A stretch of 36,231 nucleotides of DNA from a virus (Duplodnaviria; Caudoviricetes): IMG/VR virus record IMGVR_UViG_3300025015_000079, positions 1 to 36,231 of that record; one strand, 5' to 3'. The notes under the pieces are model-generated. The model was not told the origin of the DNA. It saw nothing but the letters and a program-made list of their open reading frames with translations, and ran no database searches. Positions 4,545 through 32,350 of this stretch are shown here, one piece after another. Made by a program: the position numbers and the translations under genes. How positions within the stretch are numbered: the stretch's first letter is position 1; each line of letters begins with the position of its first letter.

Positions 4545-4684
4545 CGAGCTTTACCGATCCCGTGACGATGCCTTTATGGGTGCTGCTATTAGCGGGCATC
4601 GCTTTCAGCTTTGCGTCGGCCGTGGTTAACGAGATCATTGGGGCGATACGCCGCTATCTACACGGAGACGACGTCCATGCCTGA
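4541..4684 (+). CDS. small single-TM membrane protein
   Basis: LWVLLLAGIAFSFASAVV; GGAGG RBS. Confidence 0.6.
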   Translation: MTSFTDPVTMPLWVLLLAGIAFSFASAVVNEIIGAIRRYLHGDDVHA

Positions 4685-5374: not shown

Positions 5375-5604
5375 CACGAATCAGCGAGGCCGACCTCTCC
5401 CACGCCGCGTTGCGCCAGACCGTCCACGGCAACTGGTACATCGCGGCGAACGATGGCAGCGGCCTCGAATGGGGCTACTTCGACTCGCAGGGCGCTGCCC
5501 TTACCTTCGTCGGCAAGTATGCACGTCGTATGTCTGCGCTATCCGTGGAGTTGCGACGGCTTGGGCTGTCGGTGGCGTCGGCGACGCCGGAGAAGGCGCG
5601 CTAA
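5371..5604 (+). CDS. hypothetical protein, last gene of the + operon
   Basis: GTGA overlap; its stop overlaps the convergent tatC stop. Confidence 0.55.
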   Translation: MTRISEADLSHAALRQTVHGNWYIAANDGSGLEWGYFDSQGAALTFVGKYARRMSALSVELRRLGLSVASATPEKAR

Positions 5605-6569
5605 GGCTTCGTGGAGCGCGCGAGGTCCGCCGCCCTCGTAATCACCTCACGCGCCCACCTGACCGCCCTGTCCAGCCACGCCTGCACCTCGACAGGCAAG
5701 CGGCCGTCCCAGACGAACACGATCACGTAGGCCAGCCCGCCGAGCGCCAGCGCCAGCAGCACCGCGAGCACGAGCCAGCGCCGCCGCCAGACCCCGGCCA
5801 CCACCGCCTTAGCCTTCTGCGCGCACGTCCTGTGACCCGCCTCCCGTGGCCGCGCCAGCCACGCACCGATCAGCCCGACCTCGTACAGCACGAAGATCGG
5901 ACCCGCCATCATCGCCTGATTCACGGGGTCGAACGTGGGGGTCAGGATCGCGCCCAGGATGAGGGCCGCTACGAAGACGTACCACCTGAGCCCCCTGAGT
6001 TGCCGGGATGAGGTGAGTCGCATCTTCGCCAGCAGGAACATCGCCAGCGGTATCTGGAACACGACGCCCATCCAGAAGGTCAGCGCCCACAGGAGTCTCA
6101 GGTACTCCGTGATAGCGATCAACGGGACCGCGACTCCATTGCCGAAGCTGAGCAGGAACCTCAGTCCGGTGGGGAGCATCACGTAGTAGGCGAACGCGGC
6201 CCCGACGATCCAGCACGCGAGGGCCACGGGGATGAATATGCGGATGAACCGCCGAACGTGAGACGGAATCCACTGGCTTACGAGGGTGTAGAGACTGATC
6301 GCCGCGACCGGGAGCGCAGCGATAACCCCTCCCCGCATGGAAACATAGAGCGTAGCGCCGAACATCTCTGTCGGCGCGATGAAGATTGGCAGCCCCTCGT
6401 AAGGGGAGAGCATTCCCCCGGCCGGGACGAGCAGGAACTGATAGATAGCCTCGCGGAACTGCCAGGTTGCGCTACTGCCGAGCCCGAAGGCTGCGAAGAC
6501 AATCCAGCAGCGCCAGTGGAGGCGCTTGCCGAAGCGACGGCCCGCGTCCCAGCCAGGGACGCTCGGCAT
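5601..6569 (-). CDS. tatC: TatC-family twin-arginine translocase subunit, divergent, with an extra C-terminal TM helix
   Basis: six-TM TatC pattern: LIFIAPTEMF-like loop, GAAFAYYVMLP..LRFLL, ITEYL, GVVFQIP, AILTPTFDPVNQ...P...LYEVG. Confidence 0.93.
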   Translation of the reverse strand: MPSVPGWDAGRRFGKRLHWRCWIVFAAFGLGSSATWQFREAIYQFLLVPAGGMLSPYEGLPIFIAPTEMFGATLYVSMRGGVIAALPVAAISLYTLVSQWIPSHVRRFIRIFIPVALACWIVGAAFAYYVMLPTGLRFLLSFGNGVAVPLIAITEYLRLLWALTFWMGVVFQIPLAMFLLAKMRLTSSRQLRGLRWYVFVAALILGAILTPTFDPVNQAMMAGPIFVLYEVGLIGAWLARPREAGHRTCAQKAKAVVAGVWRRRWLVLAVLLALALGGLAYVIVFVWDGRLPVEVQAWLDRAVRWAREVITRAADLARSTKP

Positions 6570-6706
6570 TAGGACGCCGAGGGCTTGTCAGCCTTCTTGA
6601 AGCGGCTGAGGAACTTCCGGCTGGAGCTGATCGCGACGGCCAGGATCAGAAAAGCGGCGATGCAGCCGACGATTATCAGAAGTTCTTGAGGACCCATACC
6701 GAACAT
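6569..6706 (-). CDS. tatA: 45-aa TatA/TatB-like single-TM protein (not in ORF track)
   Basis: MFGMGPQELLIIVGCIAAFLILAVAISSSRKFLSRFKKADKPSAS; AGGAG RBS; TAATG overlap with tatC start; lacks the FG hinge. Confidence 0.7.
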   Translation of the reverse strand: MFGMGPQELLIIVGCIAAFLILAVAISSSRKFLSRFKKADKPSAS

Positions 6707-6717
6707 CTTGCACTCTC

Positions 6718-6951
6718 CTACAGGCGCTCAAGCATCTTGAGCACACTACTTGAACGCATCCGCCGCACCATGCCGTGCATGCCGGCCTTTGTCGTGATCG
6801 CCGTCCACGTGAGGATTCCGACACCCGCCTGTGCCAGATCGGGCACGAGGCCGGTCGCCTCCCCGAAAAGGTACTTCGTCCCCCGCACCGCGACGAACGA
6901 GCCAAAGATGGAGACGAAGATGATACGTAGGAGCCAGCCCAGCGGTGACAT
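6718..6951 (-). CDS. 77-aa two-TM membrane protein (holin-like topology)
   Basis: LGWLLRIIFVSIFGSFVAV and a second hydrophobic stretch LAQAGVGILTWTAI; basic C-terminus. Confidence 0.55.
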   Translation of the reverse strand: MSPLGWLLRIIFVSIFGSFVAVRGTKYLFGEATGLVPDLAQAGVGILTWTAITTKAGMHGMVRRMRSSSVLKMLERL

Positions 6952-6955
6952 TCGG

Positions 6956-7243
6956 CTACGCCTTCTTGTCCTCAAGCCCATCCAGGACACCTCGAATCAT
7001 CCCAGCGCCCTTACGGAGATAGTGCTCGCCCATGATCTTGATCGGCTGGAACCCCGCCTTCTTGGCGCGCTCGAAGACGTCGCGGAGCTCTTCACGGAAC
7101 TCCTCTGGGGTCGTGGGCAAAGACCGCACCGCCTTGGTCTCGGACTTCGCCTCCCCAGCCGGTACAGCCACAGGCTCGACTGCTGCGGGGGGGGCCGGTG
7201 CCTCCGCGGTCGCGGTCTTCGTCGTCGCGTCAGCCTTCACCAT
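6956..7243 (-). CDS. hypothetical protein (Ala/Pro-rich N-terminus, amphipathic C-terminus)
   Basis: AAGGGA RBS; typical codon usage. Confidence 0.7.
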   Translation of the reverse strand: MVKADATTKTATAEAPAPPAAVEPVAVPAGEAKSETKAVRSLPTTPEEFREELRDVFERAKKAGFQPIKIMGEHYLRKGAGMIRGVLDGLEDKKA

Positions 7244-7769: not shown

Positions 7770-8879
7770 CTACGCCTTGGTCGGGTACACGGTGAAGTAG
7801 TACGGCGTGCCGCCGATGTCGATCTCGATGTCGAGCTGCGTACCGCTGAGGGCGGAGGCGGAGGCGTTCTTGAGGTTCTTGAGGACCATGCCGCTTGCGC
7901 CGGTTCCGGACGAACCCAACACCGCACTGGCCCTTGCTATCGAGTTGCCTGCAGCGTCCCACCGCCAGACCTCGCGGATGCCGTCAGGGTTTCCGCCACC
8001 CGGATGCGTGCGGACCACGACCGCGGCCCCAATGTCGCTTGTAGCAGGGGACGCGTCATCAACCTCGAAGATGATGTCGGCAAGGGTCGTAACGTAGTCG
8101 GTTCCATCGTCCGCGACTGCCCGAAGCACGCCGAGAATGTCGTCGTCCGCGACGATGGTGAAAGAGCCGATAGTCGCGTTCCGTGATTTCACAAAGTAGG
8201 CGACAGGGCCATTAACGTCCGCAGACCACCGCCCAAGTATCGTGGACGCATCCGCCGCGGCTGTCCCTAGGACTTGCACCTCCGACGTGTCGCCAGCGGC
8301 AGACACCTGCGCCGTGTGGCCGACGATCAGGCCGTACCCGTTGGCAACCGAGATGTCGCCCGTAAAGCCGTGATAGCCGGTCCCGACAACAAGCGAGTTG
8401 TAAAGCTGGTTCGTGCCGTCGTACTGGATGGTCGCGTCGCCGCCTGTACCAAAAGTCAGCGCGACGCTGTCGTTGAATGTCTTGGCCGCCGTGATCGCTT
8501 GGGCAAGGCCCAGCGTCATCAGCGTGTCGGTGCCCGTGATGACCGGCAGGTTGAGCTGGCGGTCCGCGGTGATCGCACCGGGCACGATGTCGTAATCAAA
8601 AGTGAAGGCAGGATTGCGAACACGAAGCGTCTGGACTTCCAGTGCCGTGAACTGCGCCGACGCGTCGTACATGTGCCAGCGGACACTTGAGCCGTTCGTG
8701 ATCCGAACGTCGTAACGCCCCTCGGTCGCGTGCGAGAACGCCCAGTAGCCGTTCGCGTCGGTGGTCGTCGTCGCGAGCACCGGCGTCGTGGTGTTGCGGG
8801 CCAATAAATCAACAGTTGCCCCCTCGATAGGAACACCCGCATTTGTAAAGAGGAACGAAGCCAGTAATTGCGTCGCCAT
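7770..8879 (-). CDS. tail fibre/spike-like virion protein
   Basis: N-terminal prealbumin-like motif GVPIEGATV...TTTDANGYWAF; Gly/Thr/Ala-rich beta repeats; position after tail genes. Confidence 0.65.
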   Translation of the reverse strand: MATQLLASFLFTNAGVPIEGATVDLLARNTTTPVLATTTTDANGYWAFSHATEGRYDVRITNGSSVRWHMYDASAQFTALEVQTLRVRNPAFTFDYDIVPGAITADRQLNLPVITGTDTLMTLGLAQAITAAKTFNDSVALTFGTGGDATIQYDGTNQLYNSLVVGTGYHGFTGDISVANGYGLIVGHTAQVSAAGDTSEVQVLGTAAADASTILGRWSADVNGPVAYFVKSRNATIGSFTIVADDDILGVLRAVADDGTDYVTTLADIIFEVDDASPATSDIGAAVVVRTHPGGGNPDGIREVWRWDAAGNSIARASAVLGSSGTGASGMVLKNLKNASASALSGTQLDIEIDIGGTPYYFTVYPTKA

Positions 8880-8880
8880 G

Positions 8881-9462
8881 TTAAGGACCTACTTCTCCAA
8901 GAACATCGACTCCTGAGGCGCCCCGCGAGCCAGGCATTGTTGATACACAGCCAGATCGCCCGCAGACGCATTCACAACGCGCCTGCTTCCAAGAACCGTG
9001 CTGCCGCTGTCTGCGCTTCCGTCCCGATAACGCAGTGCAGGCACGGCAATGCCTTCTGCCAGCACGCGTGACATATGTGTTGGCATCGTCGAAAGGATGT
9101 CCGCGTAGGCAGTGCGTTTTAAGTCGCCAGAAATCGCTAAGAACCTGACTAGACTTGCCGCGGCGATTATTCTCAGCGCGTGTAACGGGTTCTAGGTGTG
9201 CCGGATTGACACAGGCACGAACGCGACAGAGATGATCTATTTCAAGGCCCGCAGCGATCGGCCCGACTAGAAGTTCATAGCTGACCCGATGCGCCTTCTG
9301 GGTTCTTGATAACTTCCGCCCGCCCCCGCTTCGAATCACTCCATAACCGTCATTCACGTTATCTTTGGCACCACGCCATATCCAACAGGAACTTCCATTC
9401 CACAGGGGGCCGGTTTTCTCGACCATTGCCCGGAAGCGTGCCTCTAACGTTTGCGTTGCCAA
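8881..9462 (-). CDS. HNH homing endonuclease
   Basis: CWIW..GYG..AHRVSY...IDHLCRVRACVNPAHLEPVTRAEN; KTHCLRGH..CRAC; more AT-rich than flanks. Confidence 0.92.
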   Translation of the reverse strand: MATQTLEARFRAMVEKTGPLWNGSSCWIWRGAKDNVNDGYGVIRSGGGRKLSRTQKAHRVSYELLVGPIAAGLEIDHLCRVRACVNPAHLEPVTRAENNRRGKSSQVLSDFWRLKTHCLRGHPFDDANTYVTRAGRRHCRACTALSGRKRRQRQHGSWKQARCECVCGRSGCVSTMPGSRGASGVDVLGEVGP

Positions 9463-12925: not shown

Positions 12926-13510
12926 CTAGGCCCGCTCTTCTAGATACTGAATCGCTTTGCGTATTCGTGGAAGGCTGTCGCCCAACCATCCAAGTGCCCT
13001 GTTGCAGTTGTCGCAGAGCAGGCCACGAACACGGCCCGTTGAGTGGTCGTGGTCTACTGACAGACATCGCCCACGGTGACGCCGTTGGCCCCGCTGACCG
13101 CCTCCGCAAATAGCACAGACACCATTCTGTTCAGCCAACATACGGGCGTAGTCCGCCTCAGTGATGCCAAAGCGGGAGACCAAGTCGGCAGCCCGGCGCT
13201 TGTCTTTAATGCGCTGGTAATACTCCCTACTGTGCTGACTGGTTCGAAGTTTCTGATCTGCCGAATAGGCGTCTTTTGTAGCTGCTTCGGGGTGCAATTC
13301 GCACCAACGAATAAAGGACATCACCGGTGTCTTGCCAGTTAGGGCGTGACGACGCTTACGGGCTCGCTCACGAGCCTCATTACGAATCCCCTCTGGGTCA
13401 GTTTCTCGACGCGCTTGGTAATGGGCTTTCGCGCGGGCGCGCATGGTCTCCCGATTGCGGGCGTAGTAGCTCTTCCACCAAGCCTGCCGTTTAGCCGTTA
13501 GGTTTGGCAT
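12926..13510 (-). CDS. endonuclease VII-type HNH nuclease
   Basis: YARMLAEQNGVCAICG...VDHDHSTGRVRGLLCDNCNRALG; more AT-rich than flanks. Confidence 0.92.
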   Translation of the reverse strand: MPNLTAKRQAWWKSYYARNRETMRARAKAHYQARRETDPEGIRNEARERARKRRHALTGKTPVMSFIRWCELHPEAATKDAYSADQKLRTSQHSREYYQRIKDKRRAADLVSRFGITEADYARMLAEQNGVCAICGGGQRGQRRHRGRCLSVDHDHSTGRVRGLLCDNCNRALGWLGDSLPRIRKAIQYLEERA

Positions 13511-14852: not shown

Positions 14853-15533
14853 CTAAGTACGGGCCACGATCACGTCGCCGGTGTCGAACTCGGCCCACTT
14901 CACGGAGAACAGGACTTCGTTGTCCACGTTGCCCACGATGACGTAGATCAGGAGCGACGCGGGTCCGATGAGGATGGGCGGCGTGAACTGCTTGGCCGAC
15001 CAGTGCGCCAGGCTCATGTTCCCGCTGTCGCCAAGGGCGGCCTGGTCGATCCGCCTGAACCAGATGGTGTCGTCGTCGGTGTTCGCAGAGGCGACGATCT
15101 GGGTGGAACCTGAGTAAGCGGAGGTTGACGAGGTACTGGGGTCGTCCTTCGCCATGTTGACGGGAGTGAGCGCGCCGCCGCCCGACGAGTACCTGACTCC
15201 GTCGTCGGTGCTGATACGGCACAGCCAGTCGCCCGCCGTTCCTGTGCCCTCGACGCCCAGCAGGACTTCCAGGGGGATGATGGTCGTGCCAGAGGGCACG
15301 TCGACCAAGATGGACGGGTTGACGTTGTCGGACCCCGGCGAGGTTTCGCCACAGAGGTCGCCTGTTTCCTGAACCGCGTGCGAGATGTTGAACACGTTGC
15401 CGTCGATGGCAAGCTGTGTCATCCAGTCGGGAACCACGAGCTCGCCGCGGCGGTTGCCACGCGCCAGCACCGGCTGCCCCTCACCTACGGCGTCGTAGGT
15501 GTTCTGCCTCATGCGAAGACGGATGTCGCTCAT
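14853..15533 (-). CDS. virion protein, paralogue C
   Basis: shares RQ...NRRGELV..W...LAxxGxVF...IIPL...P.L.GPASL....W.EF with 16129-17508. Confidence 0.75.
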   Translation of the reverse strand: MSDIRLRMRQNTYDAVGEGQPVLARGNRRGELVVPDWMTQLAIDGNVFNISHAVQETGDLCGETSPGSDNVNPSILVDVPSGTTIIPLEVLLGVEGTGTAGDWLCRISTDDGVRYSSGGGALTPVNMAKDDPSTSSTSAYSGSTQIVASANTDDDTIWFRRIDQAALGDSGNMSLAHWSAKQFTPPILIGPASLLIYVIVGNVDNEVLFSVKWAEFDTGDVIVART

Positions 15534-16128: not shown

Positions 16129-16842
16129 CTAGCGAATCTCGTCCGAGCTGAACTCGGCCCAAGTCGCCACCACGAACCCGGTGTTGCCCGCGGCCGTACC
16201 GCTGCCGACTGCTATGGCGATCGTGCCGGGAGCAGTCACCAGAGGCGCGTTCCCGTGGGTCAGCGCAGACCACTCGTAGAGGGTCCGGGGGGCCAGCGTT
16301 ACGTCCTGGTTGCTCGACGGATAGCCGCTCCGGTAGAACTCGTCCACGCCGGACTGCGTGTTGCCCACAGCCGAGTAGAGCGACTGGACTTGAGCGGCCG
16401 AGCCGCCGCGAAAGCCGTTGACGAAGTTGTTGACGTAGCCGCTCACCGTGGTCAGCGGGTTGGCCGCGAGCGCAGTCGACGTGCCCGTTCCAATGTCCAC
16501 GTTGGACGCATAGAACACAACCTCGTTGATCGTGGCGGCAGCAGCGGCCTCGAACACGATCCCCAAGTAGACCGGCATGAACACCTTGCCGGAGCCCGCG
16601 ACGTTCCGAATGGCGATCTCGGCGTCCTCAAGCACGAGAGCCGTCTGAGATGCGCCGAAGAACGTGACAGGCGCGGAGATCGAGCCCAGGTAGGCTGTGA
16701 ACAGCTTGCCTTCAAGGGCCAGCGAGATCAGCCACGGCATCGTGACGACTTCGCCGCGCCGATTGACACGAATCGGCGTCTTGGTGCCGTCCGAGCCTGC
16801 GGACGGGACGGACGTTTGTCTTACGGCAGTAATTGCGCCCAT
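16129..16842 (-). CDS. virion protein, paralogue B
   Basis: colinear with and strongly similar to 16852-17508. Confidence 0.8.
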   Translation of the reverse strand: MGAITAVRQTSVPSAGSDGTKTPIRVNRRGEVVTMPWLISLALEGKLFTAYLGSISAPVTFFGASQTALVLEDAEIAIRNVAGSGKVFMPVYLGIVFEAAAAATINEVVFYASNVDIGTGTSTALAANPLTTVSGYVNNFVNGFRGGSAAQVQSLYSAVGNTQSGVDEFYRSGYPSSNQDVTLAPRTLYEWSALTHGNAPLVTAPGTIAIAVGSGTAAGNTGFVVATWAEFSSDEIR

Positions 16843-16851
16843 GTCGTCCTC

Positions 16852-17508
16852 CTACGCCAACTCGGTGGCGGTGAACTCGGCCCAGGTGATCGTCGCGAAA
16901 CCTGTCTGAGAGGTCGCTGCGCCGGAGCTGATGATGAGCGACGCCGGACCCTTCAGGATCGGGGCGTTGCCCTGTACCAGGTAGCTCCACTCGTAGAGCG
17001 GCCGGGGCGTCAGGGTCAAGGACGCGTCGGTCGGGTAGCCGGAGCGGTAGAACTCAAGGGCGCTGGTGTAGGCCGCCGAGTCGCCGGAGTAGATGGAGTC
17101 CACCTCGCAGGCGGTGCTCACGGTCGAGCCGCGCAGCATGTTGACCGGCGTGATCGCGGTTCCGTTGGTTCGCAGGATGTCGTTGGCCGTGCAGGAGAAC
17201 GCGACCTCGTTGACACCCGCGCCGCCCTGCGTTTCGAAGTAGAGCGCCATGTAGAGCGGGATGATGATCGTGGACGAGGATGGCACCTTGACCGCAAGCT
17301 GCGGCCGTCGCACCACGATTGCCGTGCCGACGAGCGTCACGGGGGCCGAGATCGTGCCCGCGTTTGCCGTGAACACCTTGCCCTCAAGAACGAGGGAGGT
17401 GTACCAGGGCATTGTGACCAGCTCGCCGCGCCGGTTGACTCTTAGGTCTACCGCCGCCGCCTCTGCGTTGGCCGGAACCGAGGTTTGCCGAACTACCGCG
17501 ATGCTCAT
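16852..17508 (-). CDS. virion protein, paralogue A
   Basis: VRQTSVP...RVNRRGELVTMPW...EFYRSGYP...LYEWS...GNAP...TWAEF shared with paralogue B. Confidence 0.8.
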   Translation of the reverse strand: MSIAVVRQTSVPANAEAAAVDLRVNRRGELVTMPWYTSLVLEGKVFTANAGTISAPVTLVGTAIVVRRPQLAVKVPSSSTIIIPLYMALYFETQGGAGVNEVAFSCTANDILRTNGTAITPVNMLRGSTVSTACEVDSIYSGDSAAYTSALEFYRSGYPTDASLTLTPRPLYEWSYLVQGNAPILKGPASLIISSGAATSQTGFATITWAEFTATELA

Positions 17509-17568: not shown

Positions 17569-18411
17569 CTACGTCGGAACCGTACGGAACTGCCATGCGT
17601 TCCAGTAGTCGAGGCTCAGGGTCTTGCTGGTGGCGTTCCTGGCCTCCACGTACACCCATGGGGTCAAGAGGACGTTGCTGTTCGGCCCCTGCGGGTCTGC
17701 GCCCCCGCCGATGGCGCTCGAACCCACCTCAGGGCCGAAAGTCATCAGGCCAGCCTCGGTGAACCGCCTGAATACAACAGCGCACTGGTTGTTGGCGCTG
17801 TCGTTCCGCAGCAGTTCCACCATGAGCCATTCGTTGGTCGCGGCAACGGGGTCTATGCCGGCCTCGACGGTAGCCATTGGCGAGGTGTCGCCGTTGTTGG
17901 CCGCCACCCCTTCCCATCCAACGCCTGAGTCGCTGGTGTCGAACACCCACAGGGCGCAGTCGGTGGCGTTGAATGTCGGAGTCGCCTTGACGTTCACGGC
18001 TCCCGGATCGGTGGCTACGTCCGTGAACCCCACCTCGATCTTGACGCCCGTGATGACGTCCACGGCGAGAAGCGCCACCATGACGCAGCTGCGGTCTCCC
18101 CGGAAGGCCAGGCCCGTAGAAAGCTCGGAGCTCGCGGTGCTGTTGCCTGCCGTGCCCGTCACGAAGTCGCAGACCCCGTTGAGGGTGTCGGCGGTGATGA
18201 CCGGTGAGGCGGCAGACGCACCACCGCCGTTTGCCACGGTGTAGATGTCGGTGCGAAGGGTGTCGCCCAGGAAATCGTCGCCCCCAGGAAGCATTTGCAC
18301 CACGTTCAGAGAGTGCTGCTCGATGAACGGATACAGACGGCTGTACCCCATCACCCTTCGAAGGGCAGGGGCGAACCTCATATCGGGCTTTGTGCTATTG
18401 CTGATCGGCAT
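17569..18411 (-). CDS. virion structural protein (beta-sandwich, possible capsid decoration)
   Basis: DDFLGD start and LSLDYW end; downstream of capsid; AAGGGAAG RBS. Confidence 0.6.
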   Translation of the reverse strand: MPISNSTKPDMRFAPALRRVMGYSRLYPFIEQHSLNVVQMLPGGDDFLGDTLRTDIYTVANGGGASAASPVITADTLNGVCDFVTGTAGNSTASSELSTGLAFRGDRSCVMVALLAVDVITGVKIEVGFTDVATDPGAVNVKATPTFNATDCALWVFDTSDSGVGWEGVAANNGDTSPMATVEAGIDPVAATNEWLMVELLRNDSANNQCAVVFRRFTEAGLMTFGPEVGSSAIGGGADPQGPNSNVLLTPWVYVEARNATSKTLSLDYWNAWQFRTVPT

Positions 18412-18477
18412 CTGACTTCCCTTTCTTCGGCATCCCCGCCGTGGGCGGGACCGCTACGTTCGGGTTAGAACCTTGAG

Positions 18478-19233
18478 TTAGACGGGCTGCGCTGTCTTTT
18501 CCCACTTCCGGTGTTTGCCGCCGCGCTTGTGGAGGTTCTCGCCGCCCTTCCGGTAGACGCCCCCGCACTCGCAGGTCACGTCCATCGCGACCCTCGCCTC
18601 AAGCTCGGCGATCCGCTTCAGGAGTTCGTCTTGCGACGGCATCGCGGGCGCAGGAGCCACAGGCGCGTTGACCTTGTTCATCGCCTCTGCCAGCGCCTTG
18701 CCGAGGCTGGTCCCGGTCCGCACGTCACCGAGAGGCTCGGTGTGCGCCACGGACTGGTGCTGCTCGCGTGCTTGCGCGGTCGGCATCTTGCGGTTGCAGA
18801 AGTCGCAGATGAACGGGCCGATGAGTTCCTTCGGGACGTCGGCGAGTTGGGGAAACTCCACACGCTGCGCCCCTCGCCAGCAGTTCGCCGTGTGAGAGCG
18901 GTGGAACTGGGTGAGGTGCTGGCGGCAGCGCGGCACCAGGGGCGGGTCGATGTAGAGGCCGGTCTGAAGAATCTGATCGACGGACATTTCCTTCGCGCCG
19001 CCGAACATGAACAGCCCCTCGAAGGGGTGGTTCGCCGTGTACGCGCCCATGTCGAACGCGCCGTACGCGTCCAGAGACACCCAGCCATGCTCGACGTAGC
19101 GGAGCTTTTCGAGCCGCGTGATGGGCGAGATGGTGATCCAGCCGTTCGGCTGCCGGTAGTAGCCGAACGTCGGCTGAATCCGCCGTCCCAGCTCGGACGA
19201 GACGGGGTCTGAGACTTCATGGGCCAGTGTCAT
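18478..19233 (-). CDS. hypothetical protein with C2H2-like Zn fingers
   Basis: CDFC-x12-H-x4-H and CECG...H.....H; ATGA overlap. Confidence 0.7.
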   Translation of the reverse strand: MTLAHEVSDPVSSELGRRIQPTFGYYRQPNGWITISPITRLEKLRYVEHGWVSLDAYGAFDMGAYTANHPFEGLFMFGGAKEMSVDQILQTGLYIDPPLVPRCRQHLTQFHRSHTANCWRGAQRVEFPQLADVPKELIGPFICDFCNRKMPTAQAREQHQSVAHTEPLGDVRTGTSLGKALAEAMNKVNAPVAPAPAMPSQDELLKRIAELEARVAMDVTCECGGVYRKGGENLHKRGGKHRKWEKTAQPV

Positions 19234-19655
19234 TCAAGTTCCTCTTCGTGTGCGTCGGCCCGTTCGGTCAGGATTTGCTCTCGGCTGAACACGGCCGCGA
19301 TCTCGTACTCGAAGTAGTCAGAAGCAGCGAGCGAAGGTACGAACGAGACGCCGGTATCGCCGTCGTCCAGAAAGCGTTCGCCCCTCGCGACCCGTGGCAG
19401 CATCTCTCTGGCCGTTGGCGTGCGCCGGGGGCGGATCGTTACTGGCTCGACCATCGGGAACGGCCCGGTCATCTTGAAGCCGTGACTCTCGACGTGCTCC
19501 CACCCCTGCTTGTGCATGTCGCGCACGAACTGCTCCGCGACCTTCACCTTTTCCCGGTCCAGCCTGAAAGGCGGCGGGTACGGCTCGATCTTGAAGCGAC
19601 AGCGCAACCTGTAAGGCTTGCGGTCCAGGGTGGGACGGACGATGAGCGTGGTCAC
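19230..19655 (-). CDS. hypothetical protein
   Basis: GTG overlaps capsid TAG; the upstream part of the track ORF is an off-frame shadow of the capsid gene. Confidence 0.65.
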   Translation of the reverse strand: MTTLIVRPTLDRKPYRLRCRFKIEPYPPPFRLDREKVKVAEQFVRDMHKQGWEHVESHGFKMTGPFPMVEPVTIRPRRTPTAREMLPRVARGERFLDDGDTGVSFVPSLAASDYFEYEIAAVFSREQILTERADAHEEELE

Positions 19656-31557: not shown

Positions 31558-32015
31558 CGCGGTAGCGACTCCAAGATGCGCCGCCACCACGGGGTCTGTC
31601 GGCGGTACGCCTCGTCGTCGCTTCGCCTTGCAGCCAGCCGCTTCGCCCTAGCCATCTCGACCGTCTCGACTTCGATCTCGTCGCCCTGAATCGTCACCGT
31701 CTCGGACCCGTTGATGACCTCGATACGGCACTTGTTGTATCCCGCAAGGGGAAGCACGAAATACCCGTTCGGGTCGGTAACCGCCGTGGCGCGGACTGGC
31801 CACGTCGTCACTGCTTCTGGGAGGGTCAGGGTGGCAGTAGTCGTTCCGTTACTGAAAACCACCTGCGATCGACGTCGTAACTGGAGGCGCCCGACGTAAT
31901 ACCAATTCTCAGGCGGCGTCTCCGGCATACAGTCGACCTGCAACGCGGTGATCTCGCCCCACTCGTACCCTTCAGGCGGCGGCGGCAACCCCTCAATGGC
32001 CTGCTTCGCCGTCAC
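31554..32015 (-). CDS. hypothetical protein
   Basis: GTGA overlap; TDPNGYF motif. Confidence 0.55.
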   Translation of the reverse strand: MTAKQAIEGLPPPPEGYEWGEITALQVDCMPETPPENWYYVGRLQLRRRSQVVFSNGTTTATLTLPEAVTTWPVRATAVTDPNGYFVLPLAGYNKCRIEVINGSETVTIQGDEIEVETVEMARAKRLAARRSDDEAYRRQTPWWRRILESLPR

Positions 32016-32350
32016 GCCTGATGCGTCCCCTGAACGCCACGCTTCTCCCGCTCCACGCGCCGAGCGTAGAGCCAGTGAAGCGCCTCTTCGAGCTTCGTGA
32101 TCGCCAACGCGTTCTCCCGGCACGCAAACTTGCCAGAAGCGGCCTTCTGGTAGAACTCCAACCGCTGCCGCGCCGCCTCGATCACGTCGTCCACGAACGC
32201 CCCGTTCGGCGCCCCAGGACCCTCCGGCGCCCGCCCCAGCGGCCCCTCCTGCCAGCGCACCGACAACCCGATCCCCGACACCAGACCCCCAGTCGGATTG
32301 CCCCCAGCGTCCACCTGGTTCTCGACCAGCAGCTTGTTACGCTCCCACAT
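32012..32350 (-). CDS. tad1: Tad1-like anti-Thoeris/anti-CBASS nucleotide sponge
   Basis: WQEGP...NG....VIEAARQRLEFYQ...FACRENALAITKLEEALHWL..R...REKRGVQGT matches the Tad1 pattern FQxG..G..DRL..FQ..F..REN..A.T..EEAL.W...R...R..R.V.GT. Confidence 0.8.
   Translation of the reverse strand: MWERNKLLVENQVDAGGNPTGGLVSGIGLSVRWQEGPLGRAPEGPGAPNGAFVDDVIEAARQRLEFYQKAASGKFACRENALAITKLEEALHWLYARRVEREKRGVQGTHQA

Follow-up and report, generated by a model that had tools for sequence, protein, structure and literature searches.

A phage TatC without the twin-arginine pocket, in a conserved cassette that may serve endolysin-free lysis of wall-less Dehalococcoidia

Introduction

The closest described relatives of the phage TatC analysed here are canonical TatC proteins (PF00902) of TatABC and TatAC systems, the nearest of them encoded in tatB-tatC pairs of Dehalococcoidia and SAR202. 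A cryo-EM paper (PMC13323110) assigns signal recognition to H12, E15, F94, Y100 and E103 and describes T208 and Q215 as contacts of TatB E8. In E. coli, signal binding is reported to trigger TatA recruitment, which F94A/E103A blocks, and TatB F13Y to render TatA assembly substrate-independent and insensitive to F94A/E103A (PMC10092561). Hydrophobic signals are reported to bypass TatC F94D and E103K in the same organism (10.1101/135103), where TatA helices are described as weakening membranes (PMC9424591).

Natural TatC proteins with an altered pocket have precedents. According to a 2026 review (PMC13673990), pocket-less TatC occurs in haloarchaea only, and Chloroflexota TatC paralogues retain the site. 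The haloarchaeal protein, TatCt, lacks F94/E103 and is still needed; it is a chromosomal 14-TM tandem fusion paired with the pocket-bearing TatCo for normal export (PMC13673990). In Naegleria mitochondrial TatC, F94 is likewise replaced, but divergence extends throughout the protein, E170 is also missing and there is no TatA (PMC6251230). The sections of the 2026 review drawn on here contain no passage on phage-encoded Tat.

The phage protein shares with canonical TatC the six-TM fold, the T208/D211/Q215 cluster and a small TatA/B-like gene directly upstream. Unlike canonical TatC, it lacks H12, E15, F94 and E103 and has a basic N-terminal face and a long basic C-terminal tail; its putative partner, orf3, lacks the hinge and the long amphipathic helix, two extra genes accompany the pair, and the whole set is phage-borne. 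In contrast to TatCt, it is a single protein encoded on a phage, in a cassette without a pocket-bearing partner, and in contrast to the Naegleria protein, its loss is local and its core conserved. The TatB F13Y mutant and the F94D/E103K suppressors resemble it in that Tat assembles or works pocket-free, but they are laboratory mutants, and the passages describing them (PMC10092561; 10.1101/135103) report no lysis. Holin-endolysin cassettes, represented by the PHROG 785 gene of sister phages, share with our locus the slot after the tail genes and the small membrane proteins, but here no endolysin or spanin is recognised, and profile comparison showed no homology of orf2 or orf3 to the holin-like peptide. 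At the protein level the phage TatC is best seen as a variant, since TatCt sets a precedent; at the system level, the open-access papers listed in our literature searches included no description of a phage-borne Tat-derived cassette.

Results

The window encodes a full-length TatC that has lost its pocket

The window, meaning the whole stretch of DNA analysed, is a 36,231-base virus record of a tailed phage; at 36.2 kb, against up to 47.1 kb for contigs encoding the same protein, it may lack part of the genome. Its minus strand encodes terminase subunits and a tail fibre protein, its plus strand replication proteins (Pfam, PHROGs), and the tatC gene is the final minus-strand gene ahead of the convergent early genes. 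Elsewhere on the minus strand, HNH and endonuclease VII genes are inserted between tail genes (8881-9462 and 12926-13510), and 14853-15533, 16129-16842 and 16852-17508 are occupied by three paralogues from the virion region, about 220-237 residues long and without a family. The product of 32012-32350 (minus strand) is a possible anti-defence nucleotide sponge, since PF24729, the Acb2/Tad1 hairpin domain, matches it weakly and below cut-off (E=1.8e-5). The tatC gene comprises the following parts:

5601..6569, minus strand: phage TatC, 322 residues, without the twin-arginine pocket (Pfam, AlphaFold, Foldseek, alignments)
6507..6542, minus strand: N-terminal pocket segment, residues 10-21 (H12 to F13, E15 to R16)
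6249..6299, minus strand: TM2-TM3 loop, residues 91-107 (F94 to L96, P97 to Q99, Y100 to P102, E103 to V105)
5856..5987, minus strand: TM5-TM6 hairpin with the polar cluster T210, P211, D214, Q218 and E230 kept; the region of lowest dN/dS
5601..5843, minus strand: C-terminal extension with Arg/Trp-rich amphipathic helices and, in the window, an extra hydrophobic helix

That the protein belongs to the TatC family is clear from its match to PF00902 (E=4.8e-41, 141 bits against a cut-off of 25). Its AlphaFold model (pLDDT 87) has the TatC fold with six TM helices, and Foldseek relates this model to the TatC structures 4b4a and 9e01 with E-values of 2e-9 and 7e-9 and a probability of 1.0. It also weakly matches PHROG 36238 (E=2.9e-15), a group without an annotated function. 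The first-pass annotation had set the gene at 5850..6569; the true reading frame extends to 5601, and the shorter range cuts off a basic C-terminal extension of 80 residues. The additional hydrophobic helix of this extension occurs in 19 of 111 relatives in the clade described below.

With E. coli TatC taken from NC_000913.3 as the numbering reference, H12 corresponds to F13, E15 to R16, F94 to L96, P97 to Q99, Y100 to P102 and E103 to V105, so that none of the residues that make up the twin-arginine-recognising pocket (H12, E15, F94, Y100, E103) is present. The polar cluster for TatA/B docking is retained, with T210, D214 and Q218 in place of T208, D211 and Q215, and E230 corresponds to E227; the position of E170 is occupied by Q172. 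These assignments bear out both the replacements initially read by eye (H12 to F, E15 to R, F94 to L, P97 to Q, E103 to V) and the statement that the T208/D211/Q215 equivalents and LYE are intact in an open frame. Three alignments agree, and an alignment artefact as the cause of the pocket loss was rejected. Identity to the donor TatC is about 43%, and core identity to canonical TatC reaches 44%.

The changes are strongly clustered. The cellular relatives have 46 columns that are at least 85% conserved. Eleven of these lie within the pocket segments (E. coli 9-20 and 89-105); the window deviates at 9 of them and at 3 of the other 35 (Fisher p=9e-6). The clade as a whole has lost 7 of the 11 and 2 of the 35 (p=1.8e-4, an indicative value, since the sequences are related).

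Pocket loss is a family trait of single origin

A protein search returned 145 matches among 7,998 scored candidates, and in the best 120 of these the first 90, the window's own protein included, are pocket-less, the last 30 canonical. A single-sequence scan of viral contigs gave no match, but an alignment of 70 of these proteins used as the query found 20 IMG/VR loci and at least 560 confirmed metagenome stretches, 80 of which were kept; the annotated phage collection contributed just 12 distant matches (23-31% identity). The best 80 cellular TatC loci in species genomes (44 of 64 parts scanned) have Dehalococcoidia, SAR202 and Chloroflexota on top. Dropping sequences more than 90% identical reduced the phage-type set from 190 to 112 proteins and the cellular set from 109 to 85. 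The 20 IMG/VR loci are directly labelled as phage, whereas for bare proteins the label is deduced from clade membership; neighbours match phage genes in 26 of the 30 metagenome loci of at least 4 kb, and cellular loci in 1 of 80.

Across these sets the pocket is lost clade-wide. H12 is present in 4/93 phage-type versus 84/84 cellular sequences, E15 in 0/94 versus 82/84, F94 in 13/110 versus 84/85 and E103 in 4/109 versus 81/85, which amounts to 0-12% of the phage-type proteins against 95-100% of the nearest cellular TatCs. None of the four residues is left in 76 of 92 clade members, whereas 80 of 84 cellular proteins keep all four. The docking residues behave differently: T208 is kept in 112/112 and D211 in 111/112, while Q215 (78/111 in the clade, 63/85 in cells) and E170 as Glu (94/112 and 71/85) are about as frequent as in cells, and P48 is kept in 106/106 clade sequences. 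As a trait of the clade, the pocket loss covers H12, E15, F94 and E103 but not P97, which 92 of 110 members retain and whose change to Gln is nearly private to the window. A one-residue insertion before D211 and Ala at 205 are common to the window and its cellular donors, in which Y100 is unconserved as well. The net charge of the N-terminal pocket segment is +4.9 in the clade and +1.1 in cellular TatC, and the residues that replace positions 100 and 103 vary within the clade rather than being re-fixed.

Two groups show other combinations. In a phage subgroup (L004, L019, L064, L071, L074, L075, L077, L078) E103 is present and H12, E15 and F94 are lost. Three long, distant cellular Chloroflexota TatCs (L173, L176, L181; TatC near the locus centre) carry E103S and, where covered, E15A, a separate partial pocket loss that runs contrary to what the consulted part of the 2026 review (PMC13673990) states for Chloroflexota paralogues.

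In a quick tree (37 of 103 phage-type and 36 of 63 cellular rows), the pocket-less proteins form one branch (SH-aLRT 100), which stands next to Dehalococcoidia when other bacteria serve as the outgroup. TatC was captured once, likely from Dehalococcoidia. Core dN/dS is 0.21 over 35 clade pairs and 0.24 over 17 cellular pairs; by region, the loop has 0.30 in the clade versus 0.21 in cells and TM5-6 0.165 versus 0.15, and the clade's C-terminal extension has 0.38. A host gene acquired by chance and now decaying might be suspected from the values for loop and extension, slightly above that of the core. Yet such a gene would hardly leave at least 90 protein clusters of one origin, a window protein with a pN/pS of 0.15 relative to its relative L022, and a conserved cassette, so that we regard chance acquisition as scarcely credible and random decay as refuted. 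Since the pocket residues are gone while dN/dS stays near 0.2, their loss is not decay but a family trait of single origin under purifying selection. Selective loss, already surmised from the window alone, is supported in that the nearest cellular TatCs do not share the substitutions and the changes cluster in the pocket segments.

The phage TatC closes a conserved four-gene cassette

The cassette has a fixed order, orf1, orf2, orf3 and tatC, with all genes co-oriented and tatC last:

7770..8879, minus strand: tail fibre gene (PHROGs), upstream of the cassette, at the end of the virion-gene block
6956..7243, minus strand: orf1, 95 residues, acidic low-complexity N-terminus and conserved amphipathic helices, without a known family
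6718..6951, minus strand: orf2, basic membrane protein of about 77 residues with two hydrophobic segments, without a known family
6569..6706, minus strand: orf3, single-TM peptide of 45 residues with a TatA/B-like N-terminus and E8

The likely start of orf2 is 6951, its longest frame beginning at 6990, and in the window the orf3 stop overlaps the tatC start. By HMM, all three orfs are found in 35 of the 47 loci with more than 1,150 bases upstream, orf1 plus orf2 in 41 and at least one in all; none occurs in the best 80 cellular loci, where tatB precedes tatC. Searches with orf2 gave no usable Atlas match and two chance-level matches in 401 Dehalococcoidia genomes. In several loci (L007, L057, L070, L073, L080, L083, L010-L016) orf2 seems split into two overlapping frames, possibly by a programmed frameshift or a true split.

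The window orf3 starts like TatB, and among 34 aligned orf3 peptides E8 is the sole near-invariant residue, with an acidic residue inside the first 12 in 32 of 34. Like TatA/B/E proteins (PF02416), orf3 has a polar residue at position 8, ahead of an N-terminal TM helix; the remaining hallmarks, namely a 12-residue TM, a Gly-Pro hinge, a long amphipathic helix and a profile match, are missing. No orf3 matches Pfam, whereas donor TatB controls do, and alignment to the donor TatB profile covers only 13 columns (HH probability 47%). Gly-Pro is invariant in donor TatB and missing from orf3, and the uncharged run is about 21 residues (21.5) in orf3 versus 13 in TatB; therefore, the short-helix thinning mechanism may not apply. 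A complex prediction of phage TatC (5-243) with orf3 scored 0.00, the partner fold being uncertain, and speaks neither for nor against an interaction. The near-invariance of E8 matches the polar cluster kept by the phage TatC, and orf3 may be a truncated TatA/B filling the docking site.

Might the cassette be a private translocase or insertase, a minimal TatAC serving one cargo with a hydrophobic, arginine-free signal (orf2 being a candidate) or binding the acidic orf1 (mean net charge -4.9) on its basic face? The retention of E170 and P48 would suit such a function, as would the pocket turning basic alongside an acidic orf1 and the reported bypass of F94D and E103K by hydrophobic signals (10.1101/135103). 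Nevertheless, we found no conserved exported folded protein common to the cassette genomes; among 487 called genes there were three twin-arginine-like motifs, and no hydrophobic signal came after any of them. Because such cargo does not accompany the cassette and positions 100 and 103 are variable, the suggestion that the pocket was re-specified is weak, and we consider a private translocase quite unlikely. If orf2 were both the cargo and the lytic agent, this reading would merge with the one that we prefer, a membrane-breaching lysis module.

The cassette occupies a lysis-type slot

In seven fetched genomes the cassette adjoins tail genes. All are podo-like except the sipho-like G004, which has portal, protease, major tail and tail completion genes, and also an integrase. 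The cassette thus lies at the end of the late genes, the position expected of a lysis cassette. No holin, endolysin or spanin family was found in 52 window ORFs (Pfam and PHROGs), in 149 ORFs of G001, G005 and G006 (Pfam) or in 149 ORFs mostly from G002, G009 and G004 (PHROGs), all taken from our own gene caller, in scans that remote families could escape.

Sister phages, sought with a tail gene, fill the slot differently. The best 80 of 208 sister loci, many of which end before the slot, include 3 with tatC, 17 with a two-TM peptide of 50-60 residues and 18 with a membrane-anchored beta-solenoid protein. Of 15 two-TM peptides, eight have a match in PHROG 785, "holin", with E-values up to 0.05 and 2.8e-6 at best, a modest result given that small two-TM peptides easily match holin profiles; the other 7 have no match, and in Pfam the peptides stay below cut-off. 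The beta-solenoid gene is present in 0/100 tatC loci and in none of the cassette genomes. Conversely, tatC is found in 0/10 sister records that were searched over their full length, including four holin-type genomes of 92-100% completeness, with a profile that does find TatC in the Dehalococcoidia genome G147. In this slot, therefore, the cassette is swapped with the holin-like module.

A small amphipathic gene occurs beside both module types; in several sisters the slot is taken by different small membrane genes or contains neither module. When orf2, orf3, the holin-like gene and the amphipathic gene were compared as profiles, no likeness emerged. The beta-solenoid protein, predicted to consist of helices and a beta-solenoid, had no significant structural match and no Atlas match; a visible likeness of the phage TatC tail to its N-terminus was rejected as not significant. 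The sister module (L210:16766-16939 and 18040-19317; L217, L225, L256, L276, L277 and others), with its holin-like peptide, beta-solenoid and amphipathic protein, lacks an endolysin and is a candidate second lysis system for wall-less or S-layer hosts.

The holin-like gene and the cassette co-occur only once, in L057. There the holin-like gene (4585-4683), about 220 bases before orf1, has two internal deletions removing both TM segments, while the cassette is intact. This remnant may reflect general decay, because the region, which also has a short duplication, is without the tail fibre gene.

The end of the late operon also gathers unrelated extra genes such as DedA/VTT. In 25 loci (for example, L003:8932-9495, minus strand), tatC is immediately followed by a convergent membrane gene with a DedA/VTT domain (PF09335); the window has no such gene. 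Membrane morons are frequently found at operon ends, a location typical of them. Accordingly, one could see the cassette as a non-lytic moron for superinfection exclusion or host fitness that changes membrane or surface properties, and the DedA/VTT neighbours and the G004 integrase would agree with this. We hold it to be very unlikely: the genes of the cassette are tightly spaced and run in the same direction as the late genes, a scan, admittedly a weak test, found no sigma-70-like promoter at the cassette, and on this view no candidate lysis gene would remain in the genomes that carry it.

The host is probably a wall-less member of the Dehalococcoidia

No endolysin was found in the sister genomes either (137 ORFs). 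As this absence is lineage-wide and includes holin-type sisters, it bears on the host and not on the cassette. None of the 26 genomes holding the nearest TatCs (completeness not given) has murA over cut-off, whereas 4/4 other Chloroflexota do. Peptidoglycan loss is described for Dehalococcoidales and the marine radiation (PMC10284905), and cultured SAR202 are reported to have no peptidoglycan and an S-layer-like coat (PMC10444878).

A prophage with the same virion genes was present in 1 of 401 genomes of the class:

G147:C4:about 787000-817000 (L287-L289), integrated: prophage of this lineage

It lies on a 1.36-Mb contig of a Dehalococcoidia genome that is without murA and has a single TatC elsewhere and no cassette; the prophage slot contains neither module. 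Beside the slot are genes that we take, by resemblance, to be toxin-antitoxin-like. The window phage thus likely infects a wall-less member of the Dehalococcoidia, a host identity deduced from these relationships. Cassette, slot and host lineage are additions to what the first-pass annotation had covered.

Discussion

The presence of a holin-like gene in the same slot of related phages suggests that the cassette breaks the host membrane and releases the phage. Judging from this context, we favour, with slightly better than even confidence, the view that it is a lysis module derived from Tat that breaches the membrane of peptidoglycan-less hosts without needing a signal. The cassette would be expressed late, and the phage TatC, free of the twin-arginine pocket, would join orf2 and orf3 in a complex that needs no signal, and orf3 would use its E8 to dock on TM5/TM6. 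Either the cassette's own helices (orf2 and the basic C-terminal tail) or host TatA, recruited without a trigger, might then disrupt the membrane, and orf1 would be a soluble timing or assembly factor. Where only a membrane has to be opened and there is no wall to cut, a phage could retain the scaffold while dispensing with the trigger. Several points count against such a lysis module: the E. coli data (PMC10092561) describe loss of F94/E103 by itself as blocking assembly, not activating it; orf3, by its sequence, would make a poor TatA; and the G147 prophage and some sisters carry neither module.

The first-pass annotation had offered two functions, a decoy sequestering host TatA/TatB and a substrate-independent pore nucleator. 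The latter idea, as substrate-independent membrane breaching, fits the lysis slot and the swap with the holin-like gene. As a decoy or poison, phage TatC and orf3 would enter host TatBC trimers or absorb TatA/B, so that respiratory, envelope or defence proteins would no longer be exported, which could weaken the envelope and cause lysis. The fully kept docking hairpin, the lost pocket and the roughly 43% identity to donor TatC would all suit this role; inactive Tat subunits are reported to be dominant-negative in E. coli (PMC9424591), and TatCt has been proposed to act pocket-less in mixed complexes (PMC13673990). But a pure decoy fits less well, because the phage supplies an E8-bearing TatA/B-like peptide and two conserved genes: orf1, orf2 and the peptide would be unneeded, the peptide would occupy the very site meant to trap TatA/B, and the exchange with a holin-like module would be unexplained. 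We therefore deem a decoy unlikely.

How tailed phages leave peptidoglycan-less bacteria is barely known, and both the deep ocean and groundwater are rich in SAR202 and Dehalococcoidia. The chances appear evenly balanced that phages of these wall-less hosts have turned Tat export into an endolysin-free lysis device that replaces the holin module. The phage family offers two interchangeable, endolysin-free candidate lysis modules, and in more than 100 natural sequences signal recognition is uncoupled from TatA/B docking. A signal-free complex could help probe the still-debated membrane-weakening step of Tat. If our interpretation is true, phage lysis systems would gain a new class, and the cassette would be a Tat that is "always assembled" in nature.
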